A DNA stretch of 64,000 nt from NCBI GenBank assembly GCA_963731045.1, contig CAVSVC010000010.1:3865-67864 (forward strand), given 5' to 3'. The DNA comes from an uncultured delta proteobacterium. GTDB lineage: Bacteria; Desulfobacterota; BSN033; UBA1163. The notes below the pieces were generated by a model. The model searched no databases, had not been told where the DNA came from, and saw only the letters and a program-made list of their open reading frames with translations. This document shows, in pieces, positions 9,418 to 41,991 of the stretch (positions within the stretch are counted from its first letter, which is position 1; each line of letters starts with the position of its first letter). The translations under genes and the position numbers were made by a program.

Positions 9418-9513
9418 ATGGATCAGCTTCGTTTCACCGATTTCAGCCGTGGGTATTATTTTTACTGGTATTTTTACGCCGGGGTCTACCCACGGGTGAC
9501 GGCTGATCCTTAA
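9418..9513 (+). CDS. Aromatic-rich leader peptide (31 aa) of the aro operon
   Basis: GGAG 9409..9412, ATG 9418. Sequence MDQLRFTDFSRGYYFYWYFYAGVYPRVTADP*, with eight consecutive aromatic codons at 9454..9477. It is followed by an attenuator structure. Confidence 0.75.
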   Translation: MDQLRFTDFSRGYYFYWYFYAGVYPRVTADP

Positions 9514-9575
9514 CCAGGATATTAGCCAGTCAGAAGCCGTGGGTAGATCGAATCTACCCGCGGCTTTTTTATTTT
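9445..9575 (+). promoter_or_regulatory. Four-segment transcription attenuator
   Basis: Segments 9447-9455, 9484-9495, 9537-9548 and 9553-9564 can pair 1:2, 2:3 or 3:4. The pairs were counted by hand. Confidence 0.7.
9536..9575 (+). terminator. Intrinsic terminator of the aro attenuator
   Basis: GCCGTGGGTAGAT-cgaa-TCTACCCGCGGC forms a 12-bp stem, followed by TTTTTTATTTT. Confidence 0.8.
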
Positions 9576-9633
9576 GGGCCGTGGGGAATCCTCCTCACGG
9601 CTTTTTTTATTTCAAAGAAAGGAGGAAAGAGCC

Positions 9634-10435
9634 ATGATCGGAAAGAGAATTCGACTGGAGCGCATCATCAACAGAGAGACGGGAAAGACGGTGATCGTCC
9701 CCATGGATCACGGTGTGACCCTCGGACCGGTTGCCGGGTTGATCGATCTGCCGGAGACCGTCAACGCCGTGGCAAACGGAGGAGCCAATGCCTTCGTGGT
9801 CCACAAGGGCATGGCCGAGGCCGGTCACAGGGGAAGAGGAAAAGACGTGGGGCTGATCATCCACCTCTCCGCGAGCACGCAGATGTCGCCTGATCCGACC
9901 TCCAAAACCATGGTGTGCACCGTGGAAGAGGCCATCAAGCTGGGGGCCGATGCGGTATCCATCCATGTGAACCTCGGGGCCGAAGATGAGACGATCGATG
10001 CTCCATGACCTGGGTCAAGCAGGCAGGGTTGCGATGGAATGGGGCATGCCGCTTCTCGCCATGATGTACACGAGGGGACCCCATGTCAAGAATGAATACG
10101 ATGTGAAGCTGGTGAAACATGCCGCCCGTGTGGGAGCGGAACTCGGAGCGGATATCGTGAAGGTGGTCTATACGGGATCGGTCGAAAGCTTCCGGGAGGT
10201 GGTGGAAGGATGTTTTGTCCCTGTGGTCATCGCGGGCGGGGAGAAGATGGGAAACGACGAAGATATCGTCGAGATGGTCAAGGGGGCCATGGCGGCAGGC
10301 GCCTCGGGCGTCTCCATCGGCAGAAACGTTTTTCAGCATAAAGACCCGGAGAAGATCGTACAGACCCTCAGCAGGATCGTCCACAGTGGCGGTACGGCTG
10401 AAGAAAGGGTGAGGAAGTTCGGGGTGATCGGATGA
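9634..10435 (+). pseudogene. 2-amino-3,7-dideoxy-D-threo-hept-6-ulosonate (ADH) synthase, AroA'-type class I aldolase; one frameshift near 9985
   Basis: AAGGAGG lies before ATG 9634. DhnA/FbaB-family sequence ([11 protein letters not shown]..., ...VKVVYTGS..., ...SIGRNVFQH) sits directly upstream of DHQ synthase II. Confidence 0.8.
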
Positions 10436-12097: not shown

Positions 12098-12963
12098 GAT
12101 GATCGATCTCGAGAACAGAGCTTTATGGGATCATCGGAAACCCGGTGCGGCACAGTCTGAGCCCGGTCATCCATAACAGTGCCTTCAAAAGGATGGGATG
12201 GAATGCGGTCTACCTGGCCTTTGAAGTGAGCAGATCTCAGGGAAGCCATGGCAGGAATCCGGGGACTGGGAATTCGGGGGGTCAGCATCACCCTTCCCTT
12301 CAAGACCGAAGTCATTCCCTTCCTCGATCGGAGGTCGAGGGGATCGCGGGAAAGATCAAGGCCGTCAACACGATCGTCAACGAGGAGGGAAGGCTCATCG
12401 GCTACAACACCGATTGGCAGCGGGGCCGTCGAAGGCCTTGGAAGGAAAAGGTTGACTTGAAAGGAAAGAAGGTCTTGCTCCTCGGAGCAGGCGGAACAGC
12501 CCGGGCCATCGGCTTCGGACTGAGAGAAAAAGGCTGCGAGCTCACCATTGTCAATCGGTCACCGGAGAAAGGGAACGCACTGGCAAAGGAACTGGGATGC
12601 GTTTTCAAGCCCTTATCCTCCCTGGATGGAACCGGAGGCGGACGTGCTGATCAATGCGACGTCCGTGGGCATGCATCCCAACATCGGAGAAAGCCCCGTT
12701 CCGAAGAAGTGCCTGGAGAAGAGGGATGACGGTGATGGATATCGTCTATTGGCCTCTTCAGAACCAGGCTCCTCGGCGAGGCCGAGGAGCAGGGATGTCA
12801 GACGATCGACGGACTGGAGATGCTTGCCCGCCAGGGAGCAGGCCAGGTTGAGATCTGGACGGGGACGAAGCCGGATATCGGTCAGATCAAAGAAGACCTT
12901 CTGAAGGGCATTGAAGCGGGGAGCAAAACGGCATCGAGAGCTCAAATTGAAAAGAATGATTGA
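12098..12963 (+). pseudogene. aroE: Shikimate dehydrogenase, at least 3 frameshifts
   Basis: The fragments ELYGIIGNPVRHSLSPVIHNSAF, GIRGVSITLPFKTEVIPFLD, AVNTIVNEEGRLIGYNTDW, VLLLGAGGTARAI and ADVLINATSVGM are spread over three frames. Confidence 0.75.
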
Positions 12964-14222
12964 GATCAGGCCGCTTCATCATTGCGACTCCGTGGTGACC
13001 ATCCACGGGTCAAAGAGCTACACCCACAGAGCCCTCATCGTCTCTGCCCTCGCCGATGGGGAATCGGTCCTGGTCAACGCCCTGCGAAGCGAGGATACGG
13101 AGCATACCCTCCGGGGACTGCGGCAGATTGGGATCCCGATCTTCTGAGGAACAGGAAGGACTCCATGTAGCGGGTCAGGGGGGAAAACTGGAGGGGAGGA
13201 CAGGAAGTTTTTTTTCTGGGAAATTCCGGAACCTCCATGCGGTTTCTGACCGCTCTGGCGGCGCTCAAAAAGGGACGCACCCTTCTGGACGGAAATGAAC
13301 GGATGAGAAAACGGCCCATGGCAGATCTTCTGGAAGGGCCTGAGGGCATTGGGTGTCAAGGCCGGATCCGTCCATGGAGAACGGGTGCCCGCCCGTGACG
13401 ATGGAGTCCCAGGGCCTTAAGGGAGGGACGGCGAGGATCAGAGGAGACGAGAGCAGCCAGTTTCTGTCCGCCCTTCTCGATGGTCGCTCCCTATGCCCGG
13501 GAAGACGTCAGCGTGGAGGTCACCGGCAATCTGTCTTCCCGGCCTTATGTGGACATCACCCTGGATGTGATGTCCGCCTTTGGGGTCGAAGTTCAGAATG
13601 AAGGAGATCAGTCTTTCTTTGTCCGGAGCAGGACAGAACTATCTCCCCCGGGACATACCGTGTTGAAGGAGATGCCTCGAATGCCTCCTATTTCTTTGCG
13701 GCGGCGGCCATCACACGGGGAAGGGTGAGGGTGGAAAACTTCCGGCCGGACTCCGTCCAGGGAGATACAGGATTCCTTGACGTTCTGGAGACGAATGGGC
13801 TGTGAGGTCAGCCCGGGGAGATGACTGGGCCGAACTCCTCGGGAAAGCGCTCCACGGAATCGAGATGGATATGAATGCCATGCCCGATCTCGTCCCGACC
13901 CTCGCAGTTACTGCGGCCTTTGCAGAGGGAAAGACCGTGATTCAAAACATCGGCCATCTTCGTTTCAAGGAGTCGGACCGGCTCAGGGCTCTCGCAGGAG
14001 AACTGAAGAAGATGGGCGTTCGTGTCGAAGAGGGAAAAGACTGGCTGGCCATTGAAGGGGGAAAAGCCCACGGGGCGAGAGATCGAAACCCATGACGACC
14101 ACCGCCTCGCCATGAGCTTTGCCATTGCAGGACTGGCCGTTCCCGGGATAAAGATCAAGGGAGAGCGGTGCGTGGATAAATCCTTTCCGGATTTCTGGGA
14201 GACCCTTCAAAGGCTGTATTAG
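12956..14222 (+). pseudogene. aroA: EPSP synthase (3-phosphoshikimate 1-carboxyvinyltransferase), at least 5 frameshifts
   Basis: The fragments IHGSKSYTHRALIVSALADGES, GDESSQFLSALL, SSRPYVDITLDVM, MPDLVPTLAVTAAFAEG...RFKESDRL and DDHRLAMSFAIAGL appear in order but in changing frames. Confidence 0.8.
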
Positions 14223-14899: not shown

Positions 14900-15969
14900 A
14901 TGGGAGGAAATTCATTCGGAATCCTCTTCAGGATCACCACCTGGGGGGAATCGCACGGAAAGGCCCTGGGCGTCGTCATTGACGGCTGTCCTCCAGGGAT
15001 GGACCTTTCCGATGAAGATATTCAGAGAGAGCTCGACCGAAGAAGGCCCGGCCAGGGAAAGGGAACGAGTCCGAGAGCGGAGAAGGACCGGCCGGAGATC
15101 CTTTCAGGGATCTTCGAGGGAAAAACAACCGGAACGCCCATTTCTCTCCTGGTCAGGAATGAGGATGCCGATTCGAGTTCTTACGACGAAATCAGGGAAA
15201 TCTTCCGGCCCGGCCATGCCGATTACACCTATCAGGCAAAGTATGGCGTGAGGGACCACCGGGGAGGAGGCAGGGCATCCGCGCGGGAGACGGTTGCAAG
15301 GGTGGCTGCAGGAGCAGTGGCCGAAAGATCCTCGGAAAAGAGGGAATCACCGTCCTCGCCTATACGATGGAACTCGGAGGGATCTCGGCCGGCAGAATCG
15401 ATGAAGAAGAGATCGAAAGAAACTTTCTTCGATGCCCCGACAGGAACGCGGCCGCTGCAATGGAAAGGAAGATCGAAGAGATGAAGCGCCGGGGTGACAC
15501 CCTGGGAGGGATCGTGGAGATCCTTGTCCGGGGCTGTCCTCCGGGACTGGGAGAGCCTGTCTTCGACAAGCTGGAAGCGGATCTGGCCAAGGCCCTGATG
15601 AGCATCGGCGCCGTCCGGGGAGTGGAGGTGGGGGCAGGCTTCGGGGCCGCCCGCATGCTGGGGTCCCAGTGCAATGATCCCATCGGACCGGGCGGATTTG
15701 AGAAGAACGATGCCGGCGGAATTCTGGGCGGCATATCCAATGGAGAAGAGATTCGGCTCCGTGTGGCGGTGAAACCGATTCCGTCCATCGCCCTGGAGCA
15801 GAACACGGTCGATCACTCAGGGAAGCCCGTCTCCTTTCGGATCGAAGGCCGGCACGATGTCTCCGCCATCCCCCGGATCAACCCGGTCTGTGAGGCGATG
15901 GTCGCGATCGTTCTGGTTGACCATCTTCTCAGACAGAAAGGAAACGAGAAACAAGGGAAGTTGGAATGA
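14900..15969 (+). pseudogene. aroC: Chorismate synthase, one frameshift near 15330
   Basis: [35 protein letters not shown] then ...GDTLGGIVE...KPIPSI...GRHD. Confidence 0.85.
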
Positions 15970-16083
15970 TGGAATGTTGGAATAATGGAATAATGGGTGG
16001 AGATCCTGCCCCGCAACATTGATTTCTTCCATTTGTTTTTTGGGTTTTCCCAGTATTCCATCATTCCACTATTCCATTATTCC
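15963..16083. repeat. Long imperfect hairpin built from octamer arrays (GGAATNNT x4 and inverted ATTCC array)
   Basis: ggaatgatggaatgttggaataatggaataatggg (15963..15997) faces cccagtattccatcattccactattccattattcc (16049..16083). About 30 of 35 positions are complementary, with a ~51-nt loop. Confidence 0.7.
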
Positions 16084-16141
16084 AGTGGTGAACGGGGACA
16101 ATTGGATGTCTTGCACACAGCTCAGGGAAAAAAGGGGCACG

Positions 16142-17229
16142 ATGAAAGAAGGACGGCAACGGAAGAGATTCAGTCTCTTCGGCAGAGGATCGAGGCGGTA
16201 GATGATGAGATGCTTCAGCTCTTGAACCATCGGGCGGGGATCGTTCAGGAAGTGGGCAGAGTCAAATCGGAGTTGGAGATGGCCTATTACAGTCCGGGCA
16301 GGGAGGAAGAGATCTTTCAGCGCCTGGAAGACGGAGAATCCCGGCCCTTTTCCCCGGTGGGCGGTCCGATCCGTCTTCCGGGAGATCATCTCAGCCTGCC
16401 GTTCCTTAGAGGCGGAATTGACCGTGGCCTTCTTCGGTCCTCAGGCGACCTTCACACACGGGGCCTGTATTCAACAATTTCGGGAGTTCCGTCCGGATGG
16501 ACCCGGAAAACACGATCCAGGCCGTATTTGAATCCGTGGAGCGCGGGAAGGCGGACTACGGTGTGGTGCCCATAGAGAATTCAACGGAAGGTCCGGTGAG
16601 TCAGACCTTGGATATGTTCGTTAATTCGCAGGTCAAGATCTGCGGAGAGATCTTCACCAAAATCTCCCATGACCTGATCTCCAGAAGCGGGAACCCTGCC
16701 GAGATCCGGAAGATCTGTTCTCATCCTCAGGCCCTGGGCCAGTGCCGGGAGTGGCTGAGAAAGAACTTGCCCCATGTTCAGCTTGAAGAAGCGGGCAGCA
16801 CGGCCGGGGCGGCCCAACAGGCTGCGGAGAATCCGGAAACGGCCGCCATTGCCGGTTCGCTCGCCGCTCGGGTGTACGGACTGACGACGGTCGCCTCCCA
16901 GATCGAAGACAACCCGAACAACTATACGCGTTTCTTCGTCCTCGGCCGGCAGAGCGCCGAAAAGACGGGACGGGACAAGACCTCGATCCTCCTCTCGATC
17001 TCTCATGCCCCGGGAACGCTCTCCAGGGTCCTTCAGGTCTTCAACCAGAAGGGATCAACCTGACCAGGATCGAATCCCGGCCCACGAAGGGAAAGCCCTG
17101 GGAATACCTGTTCTTTATCGATCTGGAGGGCCATGCGGCCGATCCGCCGGTCGCGGAATCCCTCGATCGGCTGAAGGGGAGGTGCTTTTTCTCAAGCTCC
17201 TGGGCTCCTATCCTCAGAGTTCACCCTGA
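16142..17229 (+). pseudogene. pheA: Bifunctional chorismate mutase / prephenate dehydratase (P-protein), at least 3 frameshifts
   Basis: CM helix EEIQSLRQRIEAVDDEMLQLLNHRA, PDT domain GVVPIENSTEGPV...HPQALGQC and ACT domain TRIESRPTKGKPWEYLFFIDLEGH. The start codon assignment is uncertain. Confidence 0.8.
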
Positions 17230-17887: not shown

Positions 17888-19039
17888 TTGATGAACAGAT
17901 CTCGATCCTCGCAGACAAAAGCCGTCCTCTCTCTGGTTATTCTCGTTTTGATCTGGGGCTACAACTGGGTGGCCATGAAGGTGGCTGTCCGGTATTCCCC
18001 CTCCTTCGATTTCGCGGCATTGCGCGTCCTGCTGGGAGTGCTGGGCCTCCTCCCGGTGGTCATCTTCTTTCGTAGACTTCATCTGCCCCGGGAGAAGATC
18101 TTTGGAACATTTCTAACAGGGCTGCTCCAGACGGGCGGATTTTATGCTTTCTCGACATGGGCCCTTGTGAGCGGCGGGATCGGCAAGACCGCTGTGTTGA
18201 TTTATGCAATGCCGTTCTGGGTGCTTCTGCTCGCCTGGGTCTGGCTCGGCGAACGGGTTCGAAAGACACAATGGATCGGGATTGCCGTCGCCCTGACGGG
18301 CCTGCTCTTCATCCTCATGCCGTTCCGTTTTACGGAAGGACTGTTCAGCGAGAGCCTGGCCCTTCTGTCGGGTCTCAGCTGGGCAGCCGGAATCGTTGTG
18401 GCTAAGAGGTTCCAGCAGAAGGCGAAAATGGACCTGCTCTCCTTCACGATGTGGCAGATGATCTTTGGCAGCATTCCCCTGGTCCTGACCGCACTTTTCA
18501 TTTCGTCACCACCGATTCGCTGGTCTGTCCCGTTCATTGCCTCTTTGGCCTATAGCGGTATGCTTGCGGGCGCTGTCGCCTGGTTCCTCTGGTTTTATGC
18601 ATTGAGCCGTTTACCCGCGGGCGTGGCGAGCCTGGGCACCCTTGCCACACCGGTAGTCGGTGTCCTGGCGGCATCGATCCAGTTCGGAGAAATCCCGACA
18701 TTTCTGGAGGTCCTTGGCATTGCGTTGATCGTCTGCGCCCTCGTTCTCAATGCCGTCCAGGCGCTGAAGACCCGGGAATCCTTAGCAGACCGCTCAAAAA
18801 TCCCTCTGCGCGATTTTTTTGCGTCATTCGACGAAAGCCGGAATCTCACTCTTTTCGAGGCATTTCGAATGAGACCTCGGTTTTCACCGGGTGACGTGCC
18901 ATCCAATTCTTTCACGTCTTCAGTGGGGGATGAGGAGAATAGTAAGAGAGTGGCGGACTTCGCTCTCTTCCATGTAGAATTGAAATATTATTTAACAGGA
19001 GGTGTCTTCCATGGTAGCCCAAATCGAACTGACGGATAG
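17888..19039 (+). CDS. EamA/DMT-family transporter; the ~80-aa C-terminal tail is probably spurious
   Basis: Ten predicted TM segments with two EamA-like halves (LIWGYNWVAMKV...). The tail after ...ALKTRESLA overlaps the next gene's RBS and start. Confidence 0.75.
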   Translation: MMNRSRSSQTKAVLSLVILVLIWGYNWVAMKVAVRYSPSFDFAALRVLLGVLGLLPVVIFFRRLHLPREKIFGTFLTGLLQTGGFYAFSTWALVSGGIGKTAVLIYAMPFWVLLLAWVWLGERVRKTQWIGIAVALTGLLFILMPFRFTEGLFSESLALLSGLSWAAGIVVAKRFQQKAKMDLLSFTMWQMIFGSIPLVLTALFISSPPIRWSVPFIASLAYSGMLAGAVAWFLWFYALSRLPAGVASLGTLATPVVGVLAASIQFGEIPTFLEVLGIALIVCALVLNAVQALKTRESLADRSKIPLRDFFASFDESRNLTLFEAFRMRPRFSPGDVPSNSFTSSVGDEENSKRVADFALFHVELKYYLTGGVFHGSPNRTDG

Positions 19040-19880
19040 CTTGAGACAGTATGCACTCGATCAGCTGGATATCGATCTGCTGGGTGTCGCTCCGGTCGAC
19101 CGTCTCGCAGAAGGCCCCGAAGGGGCGCGTCCCACGGATTACCTGCCAGGGGCTACGTCCGTCGTGGTCTGCGCGGCGAAGATCCCCGATGCAGCGATCG
19201 AGGCGGCAGGGCACTACGAGGAGCCGGGAAGACACTCGGTCCCTATATGTGGTATGGCTATGTGGTTTTGAACTGGGATCTCTCTTCGGCCGTCAGGCGT
19301 CTCGTCCGATTCCTTGAGACCAGGGGTTTCAAGGCCCTTCCCTTTCCACCCACCGGGTTGTCCTACAAGCACGGGAACTCGGGGGGACCTCTCTCACCGG
19401 CATAGTGCCGTGGCGGCCGGTCTCGGTGAATTCGGCTTCAGCGGCCTTCTGCTCACCCCCCAGTTCGGCCCGAGACAGAGGCTCGTCTCCATTGTCACCG
19501 ATGCGCCTCTTCAGCCATCACCCATGTACCACGGCCCGAAACTCTGCCGGCCCGAGGTGTGCGGCTATGCGTGTCTCAAGGCGTGCCCAACTGCGGCCAT
19601 GAAAGGAAAGGTATCCTTGGAGATCGAAGGAAGGACATTTGAGTACGCCAAGCTGCATCCCGTGAAGTGCAAGTGGCCCTTTCCCGAGAAAGGCTATCGG
19701 AGGACCAGGGTTCCGATGCCCGCAGACCCGACCGAGGAGGACCTCCGTCAGGTGATGGCATCCACGAAGCCTCATCCCTTCGACGCCGCCCTGAGCCAGT
19801 TCACCTTTGTTCCGCAATGCGGGGCCTGCATCTTCAGCTGCCCGTCCCCGCGTTTTAAAGAAACCTCTTGTGCCGGCTGA
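19011..19880 (+). pseudogene. Fe-S protein of the epoxyqueuosine-reductase / reductive-dehalogenase-like family, frameshifted
   Basis: AGGAGG lies before ATG 19011. QueG-like N-terminus (DLLGVAPVDRL...), then ...SHRHSAVAAGLGEFG..., CxxxCxxxCxxxCP and CGACIFSCP clusters in a second frame. Confidence 0.5.
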
Positions 19881-20754: not shown

Positions 20755-22263
20755 CTATGCCATCCAGACGGACTCCAGATAGGTCCCTTCGAAGTCGATA
20801 ACCACCTGGGGCTGATTGTTCTTCAGATTCCACGAGACAAACGGGGTCAACTGGTCGTGGATCGTTTCCTGCTTGATCCCCAGCCGGTCCCCGATCATAC
20901 CCTGGGCCATTTGAACCGCGGTAAGAAGCAGCTGGTCGACATGGAGACCTGCGTTGAGGCTCTTCAAACCGGGATGGGTTTGAAGCTGTTCCATCGCTTC
21001 GTCCAGATGAATGGCGCCGATCTTGCGGCGTAAGACATAGGCATTTCCCCGGTCACGGATGACCAGCAGGACGGAGTTGGTTTTCAGCCAGGTACTCCGG
21101 ACCTTGGTCCCGGCCATCTCGGATTCGATGCGCTCCAGGAGCCTGCTCTTTGTCCTCAGTCCGGGCAGCTGCCTCTCCTGAATCCGTTCAAAGATAAACT
21201 CTTCCCCGTCGATGACGATCTCCTTGAGGCGGGTGGGGTCGAACCCCAGATCCATGAGGTCGCCCAGGGTCAGGGGGTCGTCGTGCGATTTCCCCCGTTC
21301 ATGCAGCCAGGCCATGAAACTCGGTCGCCGGTAGTTGGGCAGGGACTCGATAAAAGAGGCGGGCTTATTTTTCAGATCTTCCGGCAGCCGATTCAGCAGC
21401 GCCAGATCACCGTTGCCCAGGGCATTTCTCTTGACCAGTTCGCGGGGAGGATAGGATTTCACCTCCAGTCTGGCCACCTCGGGTCCCAGGGTGATCTGTT
21501 CCGTCGATTCACCGCCCGTATAGCCCAGCAGGTTCCCGATCCGGCGACTGAAGGCGGTCCACTTGGTCACGAAACGGGTGAACATGAACCGCATGAACGG
21601 CGAGGCCTCCCCTCGTTCGATCTCTCCCTTGAAGTAGGTGAGGAGGGTCTGGTAAAGGTCTTTGAATTCCTCAATGGTCCTTCCGACCATGACCTCGTTC
21701 TCTCTCACGTGGATGACGGTGCGCTTCCTTTTCAAATGGTGCAGCAGTTTGAAAAGAGGCCCCTTCAGGTCTCTCCCCTCCAGCGCCGGGGGAATGAAGA
21801 CCATGTAGTTGTCGTTGCTGCCGGAGAGCGAATCGCCGATGATGGTCTGAACAGGTTTCCAGGATTGCCTGAGATAGATGTCATACGTCGGGTCTTTATC
21901 CGGAATGATATTGTTCAGAATCCCGAGGGCCGACTTGTCAATCAAGAAATCGTGGAAGGATTTGAGGATGCGGGTCCCCAGCCCTCTCTTCCTGAAAGGG
22001 GCGGCGACCTCAACGTAAACAAGGTAGTAACACGGGATGGGTTTCTTCAGATAGAGCATGTTCAGCCGGCCCAGGTTCTCCCCTGACTCCGCATTGATCT
22101 CGAACAACCGGAGACCGCCTTTGGAATCCTCGGGTTTCAGCCTGTCGAGCCTGCTGCCCGAAACGGTCTTGTTCATAAGACCCCATAGATCGTTGAAAAG
22201 ATCTGCAACCATGGGGGCCTCGGGCAGGCCGCGACGCATTCCTTCATCGATGAGGGCGATCAA
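20755..22263 (-). CDS. Uncharacterised 502-aa protein: N-terminal GNAT-like acyltransferase fold plus a ~330-aa unknown domain
   Basis: Intact ORF. VEVAAPFRKRGLGTRILKSFHDFL resembles GNAT motif A (R/QxxGxG). I do not recognise the remainder. It lies 37 nt downstream of the MBL gene on the same strand. Confidence 0.6.
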   Translation of the reverse strand: MIALIDEGMRRGLPEAPMVADLFNDLWGLMNKTVSGSRLDRLKPEDSKGGLRLFEINAESGENLGRLNMLYLKKPIPCYYLVYVEVAAPFRKRGLGTRILKSFHDFLIDKSALGILNNIIPDKDPTYDIYLRQSWKPVQTIIGDSLSGSNDNYMVFIPPALEGRDLKGPLFKLLHHLKRKRTVIHVRENEVMVGRTIEEFKDLYQTLLTYFKGEIERGEASPFMRFMFTRFVTKWTAFSRRIGNLLGYTGGESTEQITLGPEVARLEVKSYPPRELVKRNALGNGDLALLNRLPEDLKNKPASFIESLPNYRRPSFMAWLHERGKSHDDPLTLGDLMDLGFDPTRLKEIVIDGEEFIFERIQERQLPGLRTKSRLLERIESEMAGTKVRSTWLKTNSVLLVIRDRGNAYVLRRKIGAIHLDEAMEQLQTHPGLKSLNAGLHVDQLLLTAVQMAQGMIGDRLGIKQETIHDQLTPFVSWNLKNNQPQVVIDFEGTYLESVWMA

Positions 22264-22300
22264 ACTGAGCCGCTCGTTAAGACTTAGAGGCTCCGTCCCC

Positions 22301-23320
22301 TCAACAGGCGCTATGGGAGAATCTTCCCCGGCAGAGGCTACCGGCCCCGGCCAGTGTCATCCCTGCCGCGCCTCGATGAACGGCCTGATCCTGCCCTGAA
22401 AATGAGAACGACAGGCCTTTCCCGTTCGTCTGGGATCTTTTGATCATGACCTTGCAGAGGTCATACATGATTCGAAAAGGCTGGATATCGGTCAGACCGC
22501 TGACAAACCGCGCTTTTTCGAGGGCGATCTTTTCGGCGATCTCTCCCAGGTTCAGTCTCTCCAGGAGTTCCCTGTGGTAGATCTCCGTGGCAATCATCGC
22601 TTTTTGAAGATGCCCCCTCACGTCCTCCTGGATGACGCCGTTGTGGCTGAGGAGGGCACGCCTGGCCGGCAAACGCGAAAGTTTTCGAATGCTCTCACAG
22701 TAGATCTCGAGGGATTGAAAGTAATTGGGCCAGAAAACGTCCTGCTCGGGAACATAGAATCCGGTGGCGTCGCCCAAGGCCAGAGTCCGCTCCGACTGCT
22801 CGTACAGGGAGATGTGACAGGGGGAGTGACCGGGAGTGTCGAGGACCCCCCACACAATCCCTTTCCCCAGATCGATCCTGTCCCCTTCCCTTACCACGGA
22901 GTCCGGCTCAAATGAATAGCGATCGAGCTGGGCAGGCAGTTTCTTCAGCTCTCTTCTCGCCTGCATGAGCTGGGCGATGCTCAGGTCCACCAGCAGAAAT
23001 TCCTTGAGCAGTTCTCTGCTCTTTAATGTCTCTGAAGCCGCAGGGCTCGCCAGAAGCTTCAAATGGGGCCATGCGAGTTTCATGTGCGGCACACCGCCGA
23101 TGTGATCTGCGTGGGAATGGGTGAGGACGACGTAGTGAATCTGTTTCGGATCGATTCCCAATGCCTCAATTTGACTGGCGATAATGCCGAAGGTGGGACC
23201 GGTCCCTCCCTCGATGATCATCCCCACCTCTCCCATGGACAGATAGGCGGGAAACGACGGCGTTCCCAGTTGATAAAGGCTCGGGGTGATCCTGATCGGT
23301 TTGTGCATTGAATCCATCAT
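22301..23320 (-). CDS. MBL-fold metallo-hydrolase
   Basis: LTHSHADHIGG (HxHxDH), DTPGHSPCH, LGDATG and SHNG motifs; RBS AAGGTGA; 339 aa. Confidence 0.8.
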   Translation of the reverse strand: MMDSMHKPIRITPSLYQLGTPSFPAYLSMGEVGMIIEGGTGPTFGIIASQIEALGIDPKQIHYVVLTHSHADHIGGVPHMKLAWPHLKLLASPAASETLKSRELLKEFLLVDLSIAQLMQARRELKKLPAQLDRYSFEPDSVVREGDRIDLGKGIVWGVLDTPGHSPCHISLYEQSERTLALGDATGFYVPEQDVFWPNYFQSLEIYCESIRKLSRLPARRALLSHNGVIQEDVRGHLQKAMIATEIYHRELLERLNLGEIAEKIALEKARFVSGLTDIQPFRIMYDLCKVMIKRSQTNGKGLSFSFSGQDQAVHRGAAGMTLAGAGSLCRGRFSHSAC

Positions 23321-23372
23321 CTCGCTTCACCTTTCGTTTACGGCTTTCTTTCCTCCGGAACCGGGCGCACCC

Positions 23373-23405
23373 AAAAAAAAGGGCCATGGGTGTATCCCAT
23401 GGCCC
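23373..23405 (-). terminator. Intrinsic terminator of the minus-strand Phe/Tyr attenuator
   Basis: In minus sense, GGGCCATGGG-ataca-CCCATGGCCC is followed by T8. It lies 50 nt upstream of the MBL start. Confidence 0.75.
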
Positions 23406-23486
23406 TGATCTTACCTGCCGGTCCATGGGCAGCCCATGAAGGTCTGCCCACGGCCTTTTTATGAGTTCAGGCAGTGGAGGCAGACC
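23373..23486 (-). promoter_or_regulatory. Five-segment attenuator between the leader and the MBL gene
   Basis: In minus sense the segments are GGTCTGCC (23486-23479), GGCCGTGGGCAGACC (23455-23441), CTGCCCATGGACC (23432-23420), GGGCCATGGG (23405-23396) and CCCATGGCCC (23390-23381). They pair as 1:2 + 3:4 or as 2:3 + 4:5. Confidence 0.6.
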
Positions 23487-23547
23487 CGCTCCTAAAGTAA
23501 AAATACCCAAAATAAAAGAAGCGACCCTGCTCTTTTCCTGCCATCAT
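23467..23547 (-). CDS. Phe/Tyr-rich leader peptide (26 aa)
   Basis: GGGAG 23560-23556, ATG 23547. Sequence MMAGKEQGRFFYFGYFYFRSGSASTA*, with 5 Phe and 3 Tyr within 9 codons. It is below the ORF-track cutoff. Confidence 0.7.
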   Translation of the reverse strand: MMAGKEQGRFFYFGYFYFRSGSASTA

Positions 23548-23575
23548 TCTGGTTACTCCCACAACATACAGTTAC

Positions 23576-23603
23576 TTTTTAACACTTTCCCCAAAAAAGT
23601 CAA
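23576..23603 (-). promoter_or_regulatory. Candidate promoter of the minus-strand leader
   Basis: In minus sense: TTGACT (23603-23598), a 16-nt spacer, TGt then TAAAAA (23581-23576). Confidence 0.4.
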
Positions 23604-23674: not shown

Positions 23675-23755
23675 GTGGAAGATATTTTAAGATTGAAACA
23701 AGGGAACTGGTGGCGCTGGGCAAACATAGAGGAGGCTTGCCCCGTGCTGCATTAA
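23675..23755 (+). CDS. trpL: Trp-rich leader peptide (26 aa) of the trp operon
   Basis: AAGAGGA 23663-23669, GTG 23675. Sequence (M)EDILRLKQGNWWRWANIEEACPVLH*, with three Trp codons at 23708-23719. The alternative start TTG 23693 is possible. Confidence 0.7.
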   Translation: MEDILRLKQGNWWRWANIEEACPVLH

Positions 23756-23771
23756 CCGTTTGAAGTGAAAC

Positions 23772-23811
23772 AAGGCCATGGGCGGCTTCCGGGTCCCCCA
23801 TGGCCTTTTTT
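23772..23811 (+). terminator. Intrinsic terminator of the trp attenuator
   Basis: AAGGCCATGGG...CCCATGGCCTT forms an 11-bp stem, followed by a T-run (TTTTTTATTT). Confidence 0.75.
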
Positions 23812-23842
23812 ATTTCTGCCTTTTCAAAGGCAGACCGCGTTC

Positions 23843-23877
23843 AAAAAAGGCTATGGATCATTTCCATAGCCTTTTTT
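23843..23877. terminator. Second, symmetric hairpin (A6-stem-T6) downstream of the trp attenuator
   Basis: AAAAAA-GGCTATGGA-tcatt-TCCATAGCC-TTTTTT. It could terminate in either direction. Confidence 0.55.
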
Positions 23878-23894
23878 GTTTGGTTGGGAAACAA

Positions 23895-24018
23895 AGATTT
23901 CGTCCGCCGGTGACGGTGACGACGCCCGTATCGTCATTCGGTTACGTCCTTGGTCTCAAAAACTTGACGTAACCCGTTGCCCTTAACCGAAACGGGCTTC
24001 GTAACCGTAACCCTAACC
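23895..24018 (-). repeat. Palindromic intergenic element, family 3, copy 2 (inverted), inside the trpE 5' leader
   Basis: The reverse complement (ggttagggttacggttacgaagcccgtttcgg...ggacgtaaccgaatgacgatacgggcgtcgtcaccg...gacgaaatc) aligns with 6865..6983 and 44796..44919. Confidence 0.7.
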
Positions 24019-27126: not shown

Positions 27127-27950
27127 ATGTTTCTCGAAAGAATTGTGGAAATAAAGAAGAGGGAGGTCCGGGAGAGAAAGAACCCGTCCCGGCAGAGGGA
27201 GATGGAGGAAAGAATTTCTTCCCTTCCCCTTCCGCGGAATTTCATGGATGCGATCTCACAACACTCTCCTGTAGCCGTCATCGCTGAGATAAAAAGGGCT
27301 TCACCTTCGTTGGGGATGATCAATGAAGAACGTCGATATCCTTCACTTGGCCCGGGAGTACGAGAAAGGAGGAGCCTCGGCTATTTCCGTTCTTACGGAA
27401 GAGAACTTCTTCAAGGGGGATCTTGCTTATCTTCATCGCGTAAAAGAAGAAGTTTCTCTCCCGGTCCTCCAGAAGGATTTCATGATCGACCCCTTTCAGA
27501 TCTATGAGGGAAGGGTTTCAGGGGCGGATGCGGTTCTTCTCATCGCCGCCCTCCTCGACCGGGAAGCAACTCAGGGATTTTGCCGATCTGACAAGGAGTC
27601 TCAATATGGTTCCATTGGTTGAAGTCCATAACGAAGAAGACCTGGAGAAGACATCCACCCTCGATCTTCCCCTCATCGGGATCAACAACCGTGACCTGAA
27701 GACTTTTGAGGTGGACCTCGGGACCACTCTTCGTCTCAAGAGAGCGATTCCCTCAAATACAAGCGTGATCAGTGAGAGCGGGATAAAGAACCCCGGCGAT
27801 GTTAGACTTCTCAGGGAGGCAGGAATCGACGGAATCCTGGTCGGAGAGACCCTGATGCGGAGCCCGGATCCCGCTCAAAAGATCAGGGAACTGCTGGCCG
27901 GAACTCAGACATATGACTACAGCTCTTCTATTGCTGCACACAGGTTATGA
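27127..27950 (+). pseudogene. trpC: Indole-3-glycerol-phosphate synthase, 2 frameshifts; no fused TrpF domain
   Basis: AVIAEIKRASPS, GASAISVLTEENFFKG, PVLQKDFMIDPFQIYE, VEVHNEEDL and INNRDLKTFEV lie across three frames. Confidence 0.8.
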
Positions 27951-28111: not shown

Positions 28112-29299
28112 ATGAAACAGCCGGATAAGAAAGGATATTTCGGAGGATTTGGAGGGAAGTTCGTTCCCGAAACCCTCATGGCTCCGATCAGGGAATTGGA
28201 ATCGTCTTACCTTTCTGCACGAAGGGATCCCCGGTTTCGGAAGGAGTTGAACTTCTATTTGAAGGATTATGCCGGAAGGCCCACCCCCCTCTATTTTGCA
28301 GAAAGACTGACCGGAGAGTTGAAAGGGCCCAGGATTTACCTCAAGCGCGAAGATCTCACCCACACGGGCGCTCATAAGATCAACAACACCCTCGGCCAGG
28401 CCTTGCTGGCGAAAAGAATGGGAAAGAGGAGGATCATCGCGGAAACAGGGGCGGGGCAACACGGGGTGGCCGCCGCCACCGCGGCGGCGCTGCTGGGACT
28501 GACCTGTGCCGTTTACATGGGAGAGGAGGATATCCGGAGACAGTCGCTGAATGTCTTCCGGATGAAACTCCTCGGGGCCGAAGTGATCCCGGTCTCCTCC
28601 GGCAGCAAAACATTGAAAGACGCCACCAACGAGGCCATCCGGGACTGGGTGACACATGTCCGGGAGTCCTACTATCTCATCGGGTCGGTGGTCGGACCTC
28701 ACCCCTATCCCATGATGGTCAGGGATTTTCAATCGGTGATCGGGAAAGAAGCCAGGAGACAGATCCTCGAAAAGGAGGGCCGTCTTCCCGACGTTCTGCT
28801 GGCATGCGTGGGAGGAGGGAGCAATGCCATAGGCCTTTTCCACCCTTTCTTCAAGGACAATGTCCGCTTTGTCGGTGTCGAGGCCGCCGGCCTCGGAATG
28901 GACTCGGGCAAACAGGCTGCCTCGCTCAATGCAGGGTCTGTGGGAACGCTTCATGGAAGCATGAGTTACATTCTTCAGAGTCGCTTCGGCAATATTTCGG
29001 AAACCTACTCCTTTGCCCCCGGTCTGGACTATCCGGGCGTAGGACCGGAACACGCCCACTATAAAGAAGTTGGAAGGGCGGAGTATGTCACCGTGACGGA
29101 CGAGGAAGCCCTGGAAGCCTTTCACCTTCTGACCCGTACCGAAGGCATTCTTCCGGCCCTGGAAAGCGCCCATGCACTGGCTTATGCGAGGAAGATGGCT
29201 CCTTCTCTCGGGAGCGACCGGATTGTGATCGTCAACCTGTCAGGCCGGGGTGACAAAGACGTCCACTCGGTGGCCGCGAGAATCGGAGTTGAATTATGA
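28112..29299 (+). CDS. trpB: Tryptophan synthase beta chain
   Basis: [25 protein letters not shown] and GGGSNAIG; intact. ATG 28112 is preferred over the track's TTG 28088. Confidence 0.9.
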
Positions 29300-30091
29300 G
29301 CAGAATCGATCTCACATTTCAAAGGTTACGGAGTGAGGGCCGAACCGCCCTGGTTCCATTTATCGTCGGGGGAGATCCCTCTCTTGATGCCACAGAGGCC
29401 CTGATTCCAAGGATGGCGGAGTGCGGTGCGGATCTCATTGAAATCGGCATCCCCTTTTCCGATCCTCTCGCAGACGGGCCGGTGATTCAGGCAGCCTACC
29501 AGCGGGCCCTGCAAAAAGGGGTCAACCTGCCGGAGATATTTCGCATGGTGCAAAGGTTGAGAGGGAATCTCGACCCCCCTGGTCCTCATGGTCTATTTCA
29601 ATCCCGTTCTCCAGTATGGGTTGAAGACCTTTGCTCAGGACTGCCATCAAAATGGAATCGCGGGAGTCATCATCCCCGATCTCCCTCCGGAGGAAGCCGG
29701 GCCATGGATTCGAGAGGCCAGGCCCTTTGATCTGGATACCATCTTTCTGACGGCTCCGACCAGTTCTCGTGAGCGGATCAGATTGGTGGACAGGTGCAGC
29801 CGCGGATTTATCTACCATGTTTCAGTCACGGGCGTCACCGGGACCCGGGGGGAGCTGCCTGTCGAGCTCGAAGGGGCGGTCAAACAGATAAGAGAATACA
29901 GCAAGAAACCCGTTGCCGTCGGCTTCGGGATTTCCACCCCGGCCCAGGCCAAAGCGGTGAGCCTTTTCGCAGACGGCGTGATCGTAGGAAGCGCGATTGT
30001 GAAGCTCATCGAGGAGCACCGGAATAGTCCGGACTTGATCAGGAACGTCGGTGATTTCGTATCTTCCCTGTCCCGCGGGTTGAAGGCCTGA
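29296..30091 (+). pseudogene. trpA: Tryptophan synthase alpha chain, one frameshift near 29575
   Basis: ALVPFIVGGDPSL...IEIGIPFSDPLADGPVIQ then MVYFNPV...GVTGTR...GFGIS. Confidence 0.85.
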
Positions 30092-40205: not shown

Positions 40206-40337
40206 ATGCAACCACAGCCGGATGTGTCCGCGTACATGGGAGCCTGGTATGTCTGGGGACTGATCTTTCTTGGCACATTTCTGATGACCGTCATCGGAAC
40301 CTGGATCGTCGTCAAGAGAAGGAGGTGGGATGAATGA
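40206..40337 (+). CDS. 43-aa single-TM protein, probable small subunit/partner of the SSS transporter
   Basis: GGAGG 40193. MQPQPDVSAYMGAWYVWGLIFLGTFLMTVIGTWIVVKRRRWDE*. Its stop overlaps the transporter start (ATGA). Confidence 0.55.
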   Translation: MQPQPDVSAYMGAWYVWGLIFLGTFLMTVIGTWIVVKRRRWDE

Positions 40338-41887
40338 AACCACAATGGTTACCCGTACCAACGCCCACAACGGAAATGATTGTTGCCGGGATCATCGCCC
40401 TTGGAATCCTGCTGGTCCTCTCCGCCTCCCTCGGCGCCCTGGGAAGGAGAAAATGGAAGAGCTTTGAAGAGTATCTCGTAGGCCACCGGGACATCGGCCC
40501 TTTCATCACGGGGGCTGCGCTTTCCGCCTCCTACATCTCCGGGTGGGCCTTCTGCGGAAGTACGGGAATTGTCTACACCCTCGGATTCTCCGGGATGTGG
40601 TTCGCCGGGATCTGGAGCCTCGTCGGGATCATCCCCTGCATCTGGCTCGCCTCCGTCAAGACAAGGGAGTTCTCGGTGAAGCTCGGGGCGGCCACCGTGC
40701 CTGAAACGATCGGCAGGCGATTCGAATCCAAGATGCTCCAGACGGTCATTGCCATCTCCATGCTCTTCTTCCTCTTCATGTATTCCGTCGGCCAGCTGAA
40801 GGCCGGAGCGAGCGTCTGGTATGCGCTGACCGGACTGTCACCCCTCTGGTGCCTTCTGCTCTCCGTCTTCGTCGCCTGGCTCTATATGGCCCTGGGCGGT
40901 TACGTGGGAAACCAGTATGCCATGGCGCTCCAGGGACTCGTTTTTGCTGTCGTGGGAACGCTCATCGGAGTCGTCGCCATTGCGCAGAGCGGAGGTTTCT
41001 ATCAAATCACGGCCAAGCTGGTGGCCGAGAACCCGAAACTGATGTCCCTGATCAGGCCCGATCTTCCTGCGCTCGGCTCTACTCAACTCATGTCCAGCTG
41101 GGTAGGAATTCTTGCCACGCCCGTCATCTTTTTCACGATGGCCACAGGCTTTCCGCACAATGTGAGCCGTTTCTCGGAATGAAAAAGATGACCAAGAGGG
41201 ACTACATCTGGATGGTCTTTATCGTGTGGTTGTTCACAGGCATTCCGATCATGCTCGACTGCTCGAGCAACGGCCTCGTGGCAAGAATCCTCTACGGCCC
41301 CCAGCTTCTTAAGATCGAGCCGTGGAGAGGAGATCTCGCAGCCCCCATGCTCGCCCACGCCCTGGGCGGCTCCCCGATGTTGGCCTTATACACGGCGGGC
41401 CTTTTCTCGGCAGCCCTGTCAACCGTGGCAGGAATGGTTTTCATCATGAGCGCCAACATCACAAGGGACGTCATCAAACTCTGGTCCCCGAAGGTTTCGG
41501 ACCAGTCCATGCTCGCCCTCGGATACTTCCTCATCGCCCTCTTCCTCTTCCTCCCCTTCTACTGGACACTGAAGAGACCCCCCGAGCTGCTCTCCATCTT
41601 CATGGGCATGGCGGCCATGGGGCTGGGCGCTGTCTTCTTCTTCGTCACGGCCATCTCCTACTACTGGAAACGGGCCACAAAATGGGGCGCGGTCTGTACC
41701 GTGATTTACGGGACGGTCATGACGCTGTACGGCGGATGGGCCGTACTCTATAAGAAGAGTCTCGGGATGGGCACCATGGAATGGATCCTCGTGATCGGCT
41801 GCGGGGTCATCTATTTCGCGGTCAGCTTACCTGACCAAACCGCCTTCCGACAAAACAATCAATCTTCTCTTTCCGCAGAAGAAATGA
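40334..41887 (+). pseudogene. Sodium:solute symporter (SSS) family transporter, two compensating frameshifts (~41170 and ~41840)
   Basis: The N-terminal half (40334 frame) and the middle (40849 frame) both look SSS-like. The frame returns to ...LLFPQKK* with TGA at 41885, just before a terminator. Confidence 0.8.
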
Positions 41888-41891
41888 AGAG

Positions 41892-41917
41892 AAGGGGGCC
41901 CCTTGGCCCCCTTTTTT
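41892..41917 (+). terminator. Intrinsic terminator
   Basis: AAGGGGGCC-cctt-GGCCCCCTT followed by TTTT. Confidence 0.8.
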
Positions 41918-41991
41918 CTCCTACCCAAGAGTTTCTAAAACGCCCCCTTTTGTGGTATCATTGCATTCACATCACTCCAGAAGGACCCTGA

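Follow-up and report, generated by a model that had tools for sequence, protein, structure and literature searches.

A putative Phe/Tyr leader-peptide attenuator ahead of an MBL-GNAT fusion gene in an uncultured delta proteobacterium and its relatives

Leader-peptide attenuators report function reliably, as the gene behind them is switched on when specific charged tRNAs run low. In the E. coli leaders pheL-pheA and pheM-pheST (Rfam family RF01859), a short open reading frame (ORF) with a Phe run is combined with an intrinsic terminator and a mutually exclusive antiterminator, and transcription reads through when the ribosome stalls for charged tRNA. The E. coli trpL leader works with a four-segment logic (1:2 / 2:3 / 3:4), and in the thr and ilv leaders (thrL, ilvL) the regulatory codons are of mixed kinds and sense more than one amino acid. 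Here, we describe a locus that has the logic of pheL and pheM and the segment scheme of trpL in common with these systems. It lies in a 64-kb stretch (64,000 nt, contig CAVSVC010000010.1) of an uncultured delta proteobacterium, and this whole stretch is called the window in the following. On its minus strand, positions 23603-23373 very probably form a ribosome-mediated attenuator that senses charged tRNA-Phe and tRNA-Tyr and would control a single gene at 23320-20755. A bolder interpretation, to which we assign a probability of roughly 0.35, is that this Phe/Tyr (F/Y) attenuator marks an unrecognised, lineage-restricted enzyme of Phe/Tyr supply, built from a GNAT domain and a new domain of ~350 residues and in some members fused to a PqsE-like domain, in anaerobic Thermodesulfobacteriota (Desulfatiglandales, Desulfomonilaceae and Syntrophales).

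The leader region comprises the following elements:

23576..23603, minus strand: putative promoter, with a -35 box TTGACT (23603-23598), a 16-nt spacer and an extended -10 box TGtTAAAAA (23584-23576)
23556..23560, minus strand: Shine-Dalgarno sequence GGGAG of the leader ORF, read in the sequence 8 nt ahead of ATG 23547
23467..23547, minus strand: leader ORF as assembled, 26 codons, MMAGKEQGRFFYFGYFYFRSGSASTA, from ATG 23547 to TGA 23469-23467
23494..23520, minus strand: regulatory codons FFYFGYFYF (leader codons 10-18), five Phe and three Tyr codons, mostly TTT/TAT
23470..23487, minus strand: segment 1 in its extended form, GGGUCUGCC + CCACUGCC, 5' arm of the putative anti-anti-antiterminator 1:2
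23441..23455, minus strand: segment 2, GGCCGUGGGCAGACC, partner of segment 1 or segment 3
23420..23432, minus strand: segment 3, CUGCCCAUGGACC, partner of segment 2, or of segment 4 as antiterminator
23396..23405, minus strand: segment 4, GGGCCAUGGG, 5' arm of the terminator
23373..23390, minus strand: segment 5, CCCAUGGCCC, 3' arm of the terminator, with the U-tract (U8, 23380-23373)

The original prediction had named the GGGAG, the ATG, the 26-codon ORF and its stop, segments 1-5, with a shorter segment 1 at 23486-23479, and the T8, and all of them were found at its minus-strand coordinates; the two large ORFs that it placed downstream (22301..23320 and 20755..22263) exist as well. F or Y takes eight of nine consecutive codons in the regulatory run. 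When all six frames of the window were scanned for mini-ORFs dense in F, Y and W, only two strong ones appeared, the leader with a score of 7/8 and another directly 5' of the aro operon with 8/8, and the third best reached 5. The 201-nt leader folds with a minimum free energy of -91.4 kcal/mol, compared to -66.4 +/- 4.4 kcal/mol for dinucleotide shuffles (z = -5.76), and 0 of 200 shuffles folded as well. The terminator is a GC-rich stem of 10-11 bp followed by U8, and the 4:5 hairpin with its T-run was also called by a terminator scan. The promoter we infer only, as it was read by eye and missed by a consensus scan; the same arrangement of TTGACT...TGTTAAAAA stands 5' of the leader at a related locus (L083), and TTGACA 5' of the leader at five others (L007, L016, L017, L051 and L079). 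An Rfam scan of the window at the gathering threshold gave 0 matches, Phe_leader RF01859 included, and a permissive search returned only sub-threshold terminator-like noise with E-values up to 5 and no leader family.

As assembled, the leader lacks one C of a CCC run (GCC-TCC) that is present in all six clade relatives (alignment A9, column 12). With the C restored, the peptide ends in ...RSGSALHCLNS*, to be compared with ...GSASALFCLNS* in the relatives. The true leader ORF is therefore probably MMAGKEQGRFFYFGYFYFRSGSALHCLNS, with 29 codons and a TAA stop at 23461-23459. The F/Y run lies upstream of this 1-nt deletion and is unaffected by it.

Comparative data strongly support the attenuator. 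Relatives of the gene were collected by scanning one genome per GTDB species, which yielded 227 hits, and the best 80 loci were kept; all 80 come from Thermodesulfobacteriota-type genomes, namely Desulfatiglandales (including strain NaphS2), Desulfomonilaceae, Syntrophales and metagenome-assembled genomes labelled 'Desulfobacteraceae'. A strict automated criterion was applied, requiring at least 4 F/Y within 7 residues and then, within 120 nt, a hairpin of -8 kcal/mol or lower with at least 5 T. Such an element was found at 63 of the 75 loci with enough upstream DNA and in none of 398 upstream regions of neighbouring genes, so that the conservation of mini-ORF and hairpins for which the original prediction had proposed a check is indeed there. 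Inspection added eight further leaders (L016, L017, L024, L034, L035, L051, L065 and L079), and the leader of the divergent relative L052 is weak, with 3 F/Y. Examples of the relatives' peptides are MSVTHTFKGFYYFFSRRAGMP, MIKCQSGNFFYFFFRGGTLPTD and MNVTRAYRYFYYYFFTGRTRTL. Members with only 33-41% protein identity keep an F/Y leader and a terminator (L086, MIKTAQKTGFYFGFFFYGPAGRPVVCGVLTKN; L088, METLKMMSYYFYFYFSLGVCPD) with terminator sequences unrelated to the others; the association of the leader is therefore old and specific to the GNAT protein family.

The F/Y-rich mini-ORFs stand 5' of both fused and stand-alone genes at nearly all loci. The MBL domain is fused at 18 of the 80 loci, while the GNAT-family protein is encoded alone at 62, with no MBL within +/-6 kb. 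The synteny of an MBL and a GNAT-like gene that had been suggested for orthologues is thus not the rule, yet the leader is kept at these 62 loci, and the regulated core is therefore the GNAT-family protein.

These data also bear on the thought that an F/Y ORF and some hairpins had met by chance in an ordinary terminator-rich, divergent intergenic region. The region is indeed shared with the trp operon and holds the trp leader and its terminators, and Rfam finds no match in it. However, the counts of 63/75 against 0/398 and the z of -5.76, together with the retention of the element at loci without a nearby trp operon, already refute chance, which we give next to no weight.

In the cultured delta proteobacterium NaphS2, two fused paralogues are present (L014 and L015). 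One of them (L015) carries a full F/Y leader, MQQYFTGYFYFNGGFPAPVD, and the other (L014) only the 3' half of the terminator, which makes the two a natural pair for regulation tests. A leaderless member of 37% identity (L084, 6001-7593) has a 51-aa lysine-rich ORF before it and a PlsC-type acyltransferase after it, and lies near a BcrAD/BadFG-type activator. An MBL gene close to it was considered and set aside, as it is not homologous to the MBL domain of the window.

The codons of the leaders are strongly biased towards U-ending forms (TTT 218 versus TTC 29; TAT 134 versus TAC 47), a bias that the regulated genes do not have (TTT 726 versus TTC 980; TAT 677 versus TAC 630). This preference for wobble-read TTT and TAT suits the sensing of tRNA supply and speaks against a different use of the mini-ORF, namely a TnaC-like arrest peptide that senses free Phe or Tyr and turns on a detoxifying or catabolic enzyme at aromatic excess. 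In favour of such an arrest peptide, the carriers degrade aromatic compounds anaerobically, and aromatic acyl-CoA chemistry would suit the domains of the protein. However, outside the F/Y run the peptides have no arrest motif in common, their tails follow the base-pairing needs of the antiterminator, and the antiterminator arm lies at the stop codon or directly behind it, which is the mark of a starvation-on logic. We consider an arrest peptide very improbable.

More improbable still is that the small ORF encodes a micropeptide, or the precursor of a ribosomally synthesised and post-translationally modified peptide that the GNAT/MBL enzyme modifies, with the hairpins setting the ratio of peptide to enzyme. 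A short, aromatic-rich peptide conserved beside a large enzyme would fit this idea. However, at nearly all loci a strong intrinsic terminator lies between ORF and gene and the exclusive pairing overlaps the end of the ORF, F and Y occur in freely varying numbers and orders with no conserved core or leader motif, and in the window analogous W and F/Y/W leaders precede the trp and aro genes.

Ribosome-dependent attenuation, as the original prediction had it, is thus strongly supported by the conserved mini-ORF and terminator, and the alternative pairings point the same way. Throughout the family, the terminator begins 21-37 nt past the leader stop at nearly all loci, and the gene usually starts ~75-125 nt past the U-tract. 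Outside the clade of the window, three architectures were distinguished:

Design A, fused clade and L038: the last four leader codons and the stop (CUGCCCRUGGAUUGA) pair with the terminator 5' arm GCCGUGGGCA
Design B1, stand-alone genes with ...MP*/MA* tails: YGUGUG...CGC just past the stop pairs with GCG...CACAY of GCGGAGCACAYGCUCCGC
Design B2, Desulfomonilaceae with ...LLR* tails: CUGCUGCGC pairs with GCGGAGCAG

Together with the version of the window's clade, all four architectures keep in register an alternative pairing that excludes the terminator. For design A, 92% of the antiterminator cells are paired versus 31-47% in slid controls, and 98% of the terminator cells. For design B1, the values are 90% versus 8-69% for the antiterminator and 97.6% for the terminator; compensatory A:U and C:G pairs occur in the antiterminator, whose covariation score was equalled or exceeded by 3 of 500 shuffles. 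In design B2, eight of the nine antiterminator pairs are invariant. The peptide tails vary with the RNA architecture (LPMD/PVPVD, GMP/RMA, LLR), and this change in step with the RNA pairing argues for selection on the RNA and not on the peptide. In designs A, B1 and B2, the antiterminator arm would be hidden by a ribosome that has reached the stop codon but would stay clear of one held up in the F/Y run, which typically lies 22 nt upstream; the placement of the arm thus matches the classical starvation-on logic.

In the alignments A6/A7 (L019-L080), 48 species have one invariant terminator stem, GCGGAG/CUCCGC, which is far more conserved than a terminator needs to be. In the same leaders, the codons right after the F/Y run (AGC-GGG-AGG or AGC-CGG-AGG) mimic the terminator 5' arm; they hold GGAGG, and a conserved ATG follows 7-9 nt on.

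The five-segment version is present in all members of the window's clade (the window, L082/L090, L083, L091, L092 and L093, with L052 as a divergent relative). Here, both alternative states are conserved. In the alignment of seven sequences, the helices 1:2 + 3:4 have 93.7% of their cells paired versus 24-51% in slid controls, with the outer part of 1:2 at 100%, its inner part at 91% and 3:4 at 89.9%. The helices 2:3 + 4:5 reach 98.7% with four compensatory pairs, of which two belong to 2:3 (98.8% paired) and two to 4:5 (98.6% paired). The folding energies are -13.8 kcal/mol for 3:4, -25.5 kcal/mol for 2:3 and -20.6 kcal/mol for the 4:5 hairpin. The scheme of 1:2 + 3:4 against 2:3 + 4:5 in the original prediction therefore stands as far as its conservation in the clade is concerned, while its segment 1 has to be lengthened. 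The short segment of 8 bp was rejected as too weak, and the scheme is plausible only with the extended 1:2 hairpin, in which GGGUCUGCC + CCACUGCC (in relatives GUCUGCCC + GCCUG) pairs with the whole of segment 2 at -21 to -23.4 kcal/mol, not far from the value for 2:3. When the transcript ends with segment 4, the 1:2 + 3:4 state then has -38.8 to -39.2 kcal/mol and the 2:3 state -38.8 to -41.4 kcal/mol, a gap of no more than ~2 kcal/mol, and in L082 the 1:2 + 3:4 (ON) state is the minimum-energy fold up to this point. In design A, the antiterminator arm is formed by a leader tail that segment 3 (CUGCCCAUGGA) matches almost exactly, so that segments 3-5 look like an ancestral three-part switch to which segments 1 and 2 have been added as a relay. 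One attenuator module would thus have diversified into three-part and five-part versions.

Taken together, the locus would work as follows. Transcription would start ~40-50 nt 5' of the leader ORF of ~29 codons with the FFYFGYFYF run at codons 10-18. When Phe-tRNA or Tyr-tRNA is scarce, the ribosome would stall in this run and leave segment 1 free to capture segment 2; segment 3 would thereby be released to pair with segment 4, the 4:5 terminator would be blocked and RNA polymerase would read into the gene. With both tRNAs charged, the ribosome would pass segment 1 and reach the stop codon just 5' of segment 2, upon which 2:3 would form and 4:5 with its U8 would end transcription. In most relatives, a three-part version would do the same, with the leader tail or the bases after the stop pairing directly with the terminator 5' arm. 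We therefore infer that the gene is switched on under Phe/Tyr shortage.

The gene itself is split in the assembly. The features of the coding region are:

20755..23320, minus strand: single gene of ~853 codons for a PqsE-like MBL domain, a linker, a GNAT domain and a C-terminal region, split by the assembly into two ORFs
22400..23320, minus strand: MBL-fold domain with the HxHxDH motif (THSHADH); Pfam Lactamase_B at 1.2e-26
22339..22341, minus strand: inserted base that breaks the frame, GGT-A-GCC versus GG-AGCC, in the linker
21784..22116, minus strand: GNAT domain, ~residues 50-160 of the 502-aa ORF, with motif A R-K-R-G-L-G and the motif-B tyrosine
20758..21783, minus strand: C-terminal region of ~340 residues (~350), with invariant GYTGGES, LPNYRRP, GFDPTRLKE, YVLRRK and IHWEEA

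The original prediction had treated the two ORFs as two genes. The homologues of the 502-aa ORF are mostly 850-870 aa long (853-870 aa in close relatives) and carry an N-terminal Lactamase_B domain; one of them, P0001, has 853 aa and 96% identity. In a tblastn search of the window with P0001, the match ran through the MBL ORF and then, after a change to the next frame in the linker at ~22337-22327, through the 502-aa ORF. Over 2614 aligned nucleotides, the sole gap between the window and a 93%-identical contig (L081) is an extra T at ~22340. Eight other genes of the window are broken by frameshifts and appear as adjacent or overlapping ORFs on the same strand: trpC, trpA, aroA (EPSP synthase), aroC (chorismate synthase), the AroA' aldolase, pheA (CM-PDT), an SSF symporter and a cNMP-CBS-DUF294 protein. 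The split regions lie at 9574-10435, 12548-14095, 14900-15969, 15997-17063, 27127-27950, 29296-30091, 40334-41991 and 41992-43938. These many split genes and the 1-nt deletion in the leader indicate an indel-prone assembly in which the two 'genes' are one, and the split is most probably an assembly error. Gene calls based on ORFs are unreliable in the window for the same reason, and the corruption of its gene models by indels is a practical warning.

A real frameshift mutation would make the MBL thioesterase and the GNAT-family protein separate polypeptides, with a restart at TTG 22263 or ATG 22212. The C-terminal part works without a fused MBL domain in most lineages, where stand-alone GNAT-family proteins of 515-566 aa occur, the inserted base at ~22340 lies outside any homopolymer, and GAGG stands 5 nt ahead of ATG 22212. 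However, the fusion is seen in the 96%-identical protein and in every further member of the clade, frameshifts affect at least eight other genes of the 64 kb, and the leader itself has lost one nucleotide in a CCC run, a pattern typical of indel-prone assemblies. A genuine mutation is therefore unlikely.

In the MBL domain, the metal ligands H67, H69, D71 and H72 are invariant (alignment A1). A glyoxalase-II-like chemistry had been guessed at for it; its closest solved relative is PqsE, with E = 2e-21 over residues 7-270, and beta-lactamases and glyoxalase II follow far behind. PqsE is the 2-aminobenzoylacetyl-CoA thioesterase of Pseudomonas aeruginosa. By this similarity, the domain is of the PqsE-like acyl-CoA thioesterase type, and it is dispensable in most lineages.

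The GNAT-like N-terminus noticed in the 502-aa ORF was borne out by several lines of evidence. R91, G94 and G96 of the loop R91-K-R-G94-L-G96 are conserved. Pfam Acetyltransf_1 stays below its threshold (15.0-18.9 bits versus a cut-off of 20.7), and a profile search against the PDB found only Naa50, with E = 0.3. Over profile positions 70-168, small GNAT proteins give matches at 1e-12 to 1e-7. NCBIfam gave no match for the GNAT-family part and only generic RimI-like names for its small relatives, and the PADLOC library of defence systems returned nothing for it. An AlphaFold2 model from 84 diverse sequences reached a pLDDT of 80 and a pTM of 0.74, and its N-terminal domain matched GNAT structures (AtaT, SpeG-type) in Foldseek at a probability of 1.0 and E ~2e-3. 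A first structure model from 35 close sequences (pLDDT 62) was discarded together with its untrustworthy kinase-like Foldseek hits.

In the later model, the GYTGGES motif of the C-terminal region lies in a flexible loop, and the kinase-N-lobe-like hits of this region (E 0.04 or worse) are unreliable. The family is narrow, as a set of 1.84 billion representative proteins yielded only about a dozen matching full-length clusters (50% identity); in the same set, the C-terminal extension has no relatives, and beyond the family only small GNATs align. That neither part is a known aromatic-pathway enzyme, as originally stated, agrees with the Pfam and NCBIfam searches, which gave no hit to chorismate mutase (CM), prephenate dehydratase (PDT), TyrA, aminotransferases or the DAHP/ADH synthases. 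A chorismate mutase identity was dropped, and a CM_2 domain is already present in the aro operon. An argument for RNA binding from isoelectric points was abandoned too, since these were too mixed.

The locus lies among trp and aro genes, as had been noted, and both operons have leaders of their own:

23675-23900, plus strand: trp leader ...GNWWRWANIEEACPVLH, in full VEDILRLKQGNWWRWANIEEACPVLH, with three Trp codons and two successive terminator hairpins before trpE
9418-9610, plus strand: aro leader MDQLRFTDFSRGYYFYWYFYAGVYPRVTADP with F/Y/W codons (ORF 9418-9513), directly 5' of the aro operon

The divergent neighbour of the fused gene is the trpE-G-D-C-B-A operon. The aro operon comprises AroA'/DeoC (9574), DHQS-II, aroD, aroE, aroA, aroK, aroC and CM_2+PDT (to ~17063), and its leader carries the tandem terminators AGCCGTGGGTAG...CTACCCGCGGCT-T6 and GGCCGTGGGG...CCTCACGGC-T7. 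The lack of tyrA and an aminotransferase in this operon holds for the whole 64-kb window, and both may lie elsewhere in the genome. A GCCRUGGG hairpin core, also noted as GGCCATGGG, is common to the F/Y, trp and aro attenuators, which suggests that the three modules are paralogous. Sensing is divided three ways, with F/Y/W for the common pathway and pheA, W for trp and F/Y for the fused gene.

Only in the clade of the window are aro and trp genes close to the gene, and only this clade keeps it beside the aro-pheA operon, an EamA transporter and a small protein of ~290 aa with weak similarity to reductive dehalogenases (RDH) and to the epoxyqueuosine reductase QueG. The RDH/QueG-like gene (window 19314-19880, plus strand; L082 10496-11377, L083 6626-7480 and L092 4378-5325, all minus strand) is convergent with the MBL-GNAT gene throughout the clade and adjoins PDT/ACT. 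QueG makes queuosine, which occurs in tRNA-Tyr among others. The EamA-family transporter, usually together with a DUF1059 mini-protein, divergently adjoins the F/Y leader in L082, L083 and L090-L092, and in the window (17888-19039, plus strand) it lies on the other side of the locus.

What does the attenuator tell about the protein? A conserved Phe/Tyr attenuator would assign the orphan family to phenylalanine/tyrosine homeostasis, and both recognisable domains handle acyl-CoA thioesters, which is the sole biochemical lead. Judging from the regulation alone, the protein might raise Phe/Tyr availability through acyl-CoA chemistry, an idea that we hold only tentatively. One possible role is a non-canonical step of biosynthesis or salvage in which an aromatic acyl-CoA or an N-acyl compound is the intermediate. 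Another is that of a factor that acts on tRNA-Phe and tRNA-Tyr and is feedback-tuned by the decoding speed at UUU and UAU codons.

Several observations weigh against the attenuator model and the proposed role of its target. No feature of the protein suggests a reaction of the known aromatic pathways. The structure search proposed in the original prediction recognised the GNAT domain and left the rest of the 502-aa part without a significant match, in that Foldseek returned nothing with E < 1e-3 for the C-terminal region, which makes up two thirds of the protein. Clustering of the neighbours over the 80 loci revealed no conserved neighbour and no partner in more than 12 loci, and six members have no leader (L001, L014 with its remnant, L039, L045, L054 and L084). 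The alignment of the window's clade holds seven sequences only. As the helices hardly vary, there is little covariation, and much of the support comes from complementarity that is conserved between related sequences and that their relatedness by itself can inflate. In principle, segment 3 could also displace segment 1 from segment 2. The folding with masked leader that had been proposed as a check gave a divided result. States with the extended 1:2 hairpin are nearly isoenergetic before segment 5, but at equilibrium the full leader with the ribosome footprint masked always forms the terminator, with a probability of 1.00 at every modelled position and for the assembled and the corrected leader alike. 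A purely thermodynamic switch was rejected on this ground; as the terminator always wins at equilibrium, the switch must be kinetic, and as such it appears plausible.

The attenuator is conserved in several orders of anaerobes that are hard to cultivate and degrade aromatic compounds, and it is retained at protein identities as low as 33%. The orphan family behind it counts 227 species-level hits, with no Pfam family and with two thirds of the chain lacking a structural relative. A 'hypothetical GNAT protein' becomes a testable hypothesis, and the locus points to a possible gap or side-branch in the aromatic amino-acid metabolism of organisms that use the archaeal-type AroA'/AroB' route.

In full-text literature searches, no description was found of a Phe/Tyr leader from delta-proteobacteria or of this GNAT protein family. 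A survey of actinobacteria reports no Phe/Tyr RNA elements (PMC1262725), and leader peptides and aromatic amino acids are unmentioned in a reconstruction of delta-proteobacterial regulons (PMC545781).

Compared to RF01859, the leader of the window has neither sequence nor covariance-model similarity, and its Phe and Tyr codons are interleaved. In contrast to pheL and pheM, its host belongs to the Thermodesulfobacteriota and not to the gamma-proteobacteria, and its target is a GNAT-family protein instead of pheA or pheST. With regard to trpL, the window's clade has an extra relay layer with five segments, and a stalled ribosome would free the first segment rather than mask it, while most relatives have a three-part version whose antiterminator arm overlaps or abuts the leader stop. 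As for the protein, the same MBL fold and HxHxDH motif are found in PqsE, with similarity over the whole domain including the C-terminal helices; the similarity is remote, however (E = 2e-21), the domain of the window is fused to a GNAT-family protein, and no pqs genes lie nearby. With the acyl-CoA N-acyltransferases of the GNAT family (AtaT, SpeG/PaiA-type, Naa50), the protein has the predicted fold, the R-x-x-G-x-G loop and the motif-B tyrosine in common, but it stays below the Pfam threshold and carries a unique, highly conserved extension of ~350 residues. The mechanism is thus of a known kind, and the regulated protein family is new territory.

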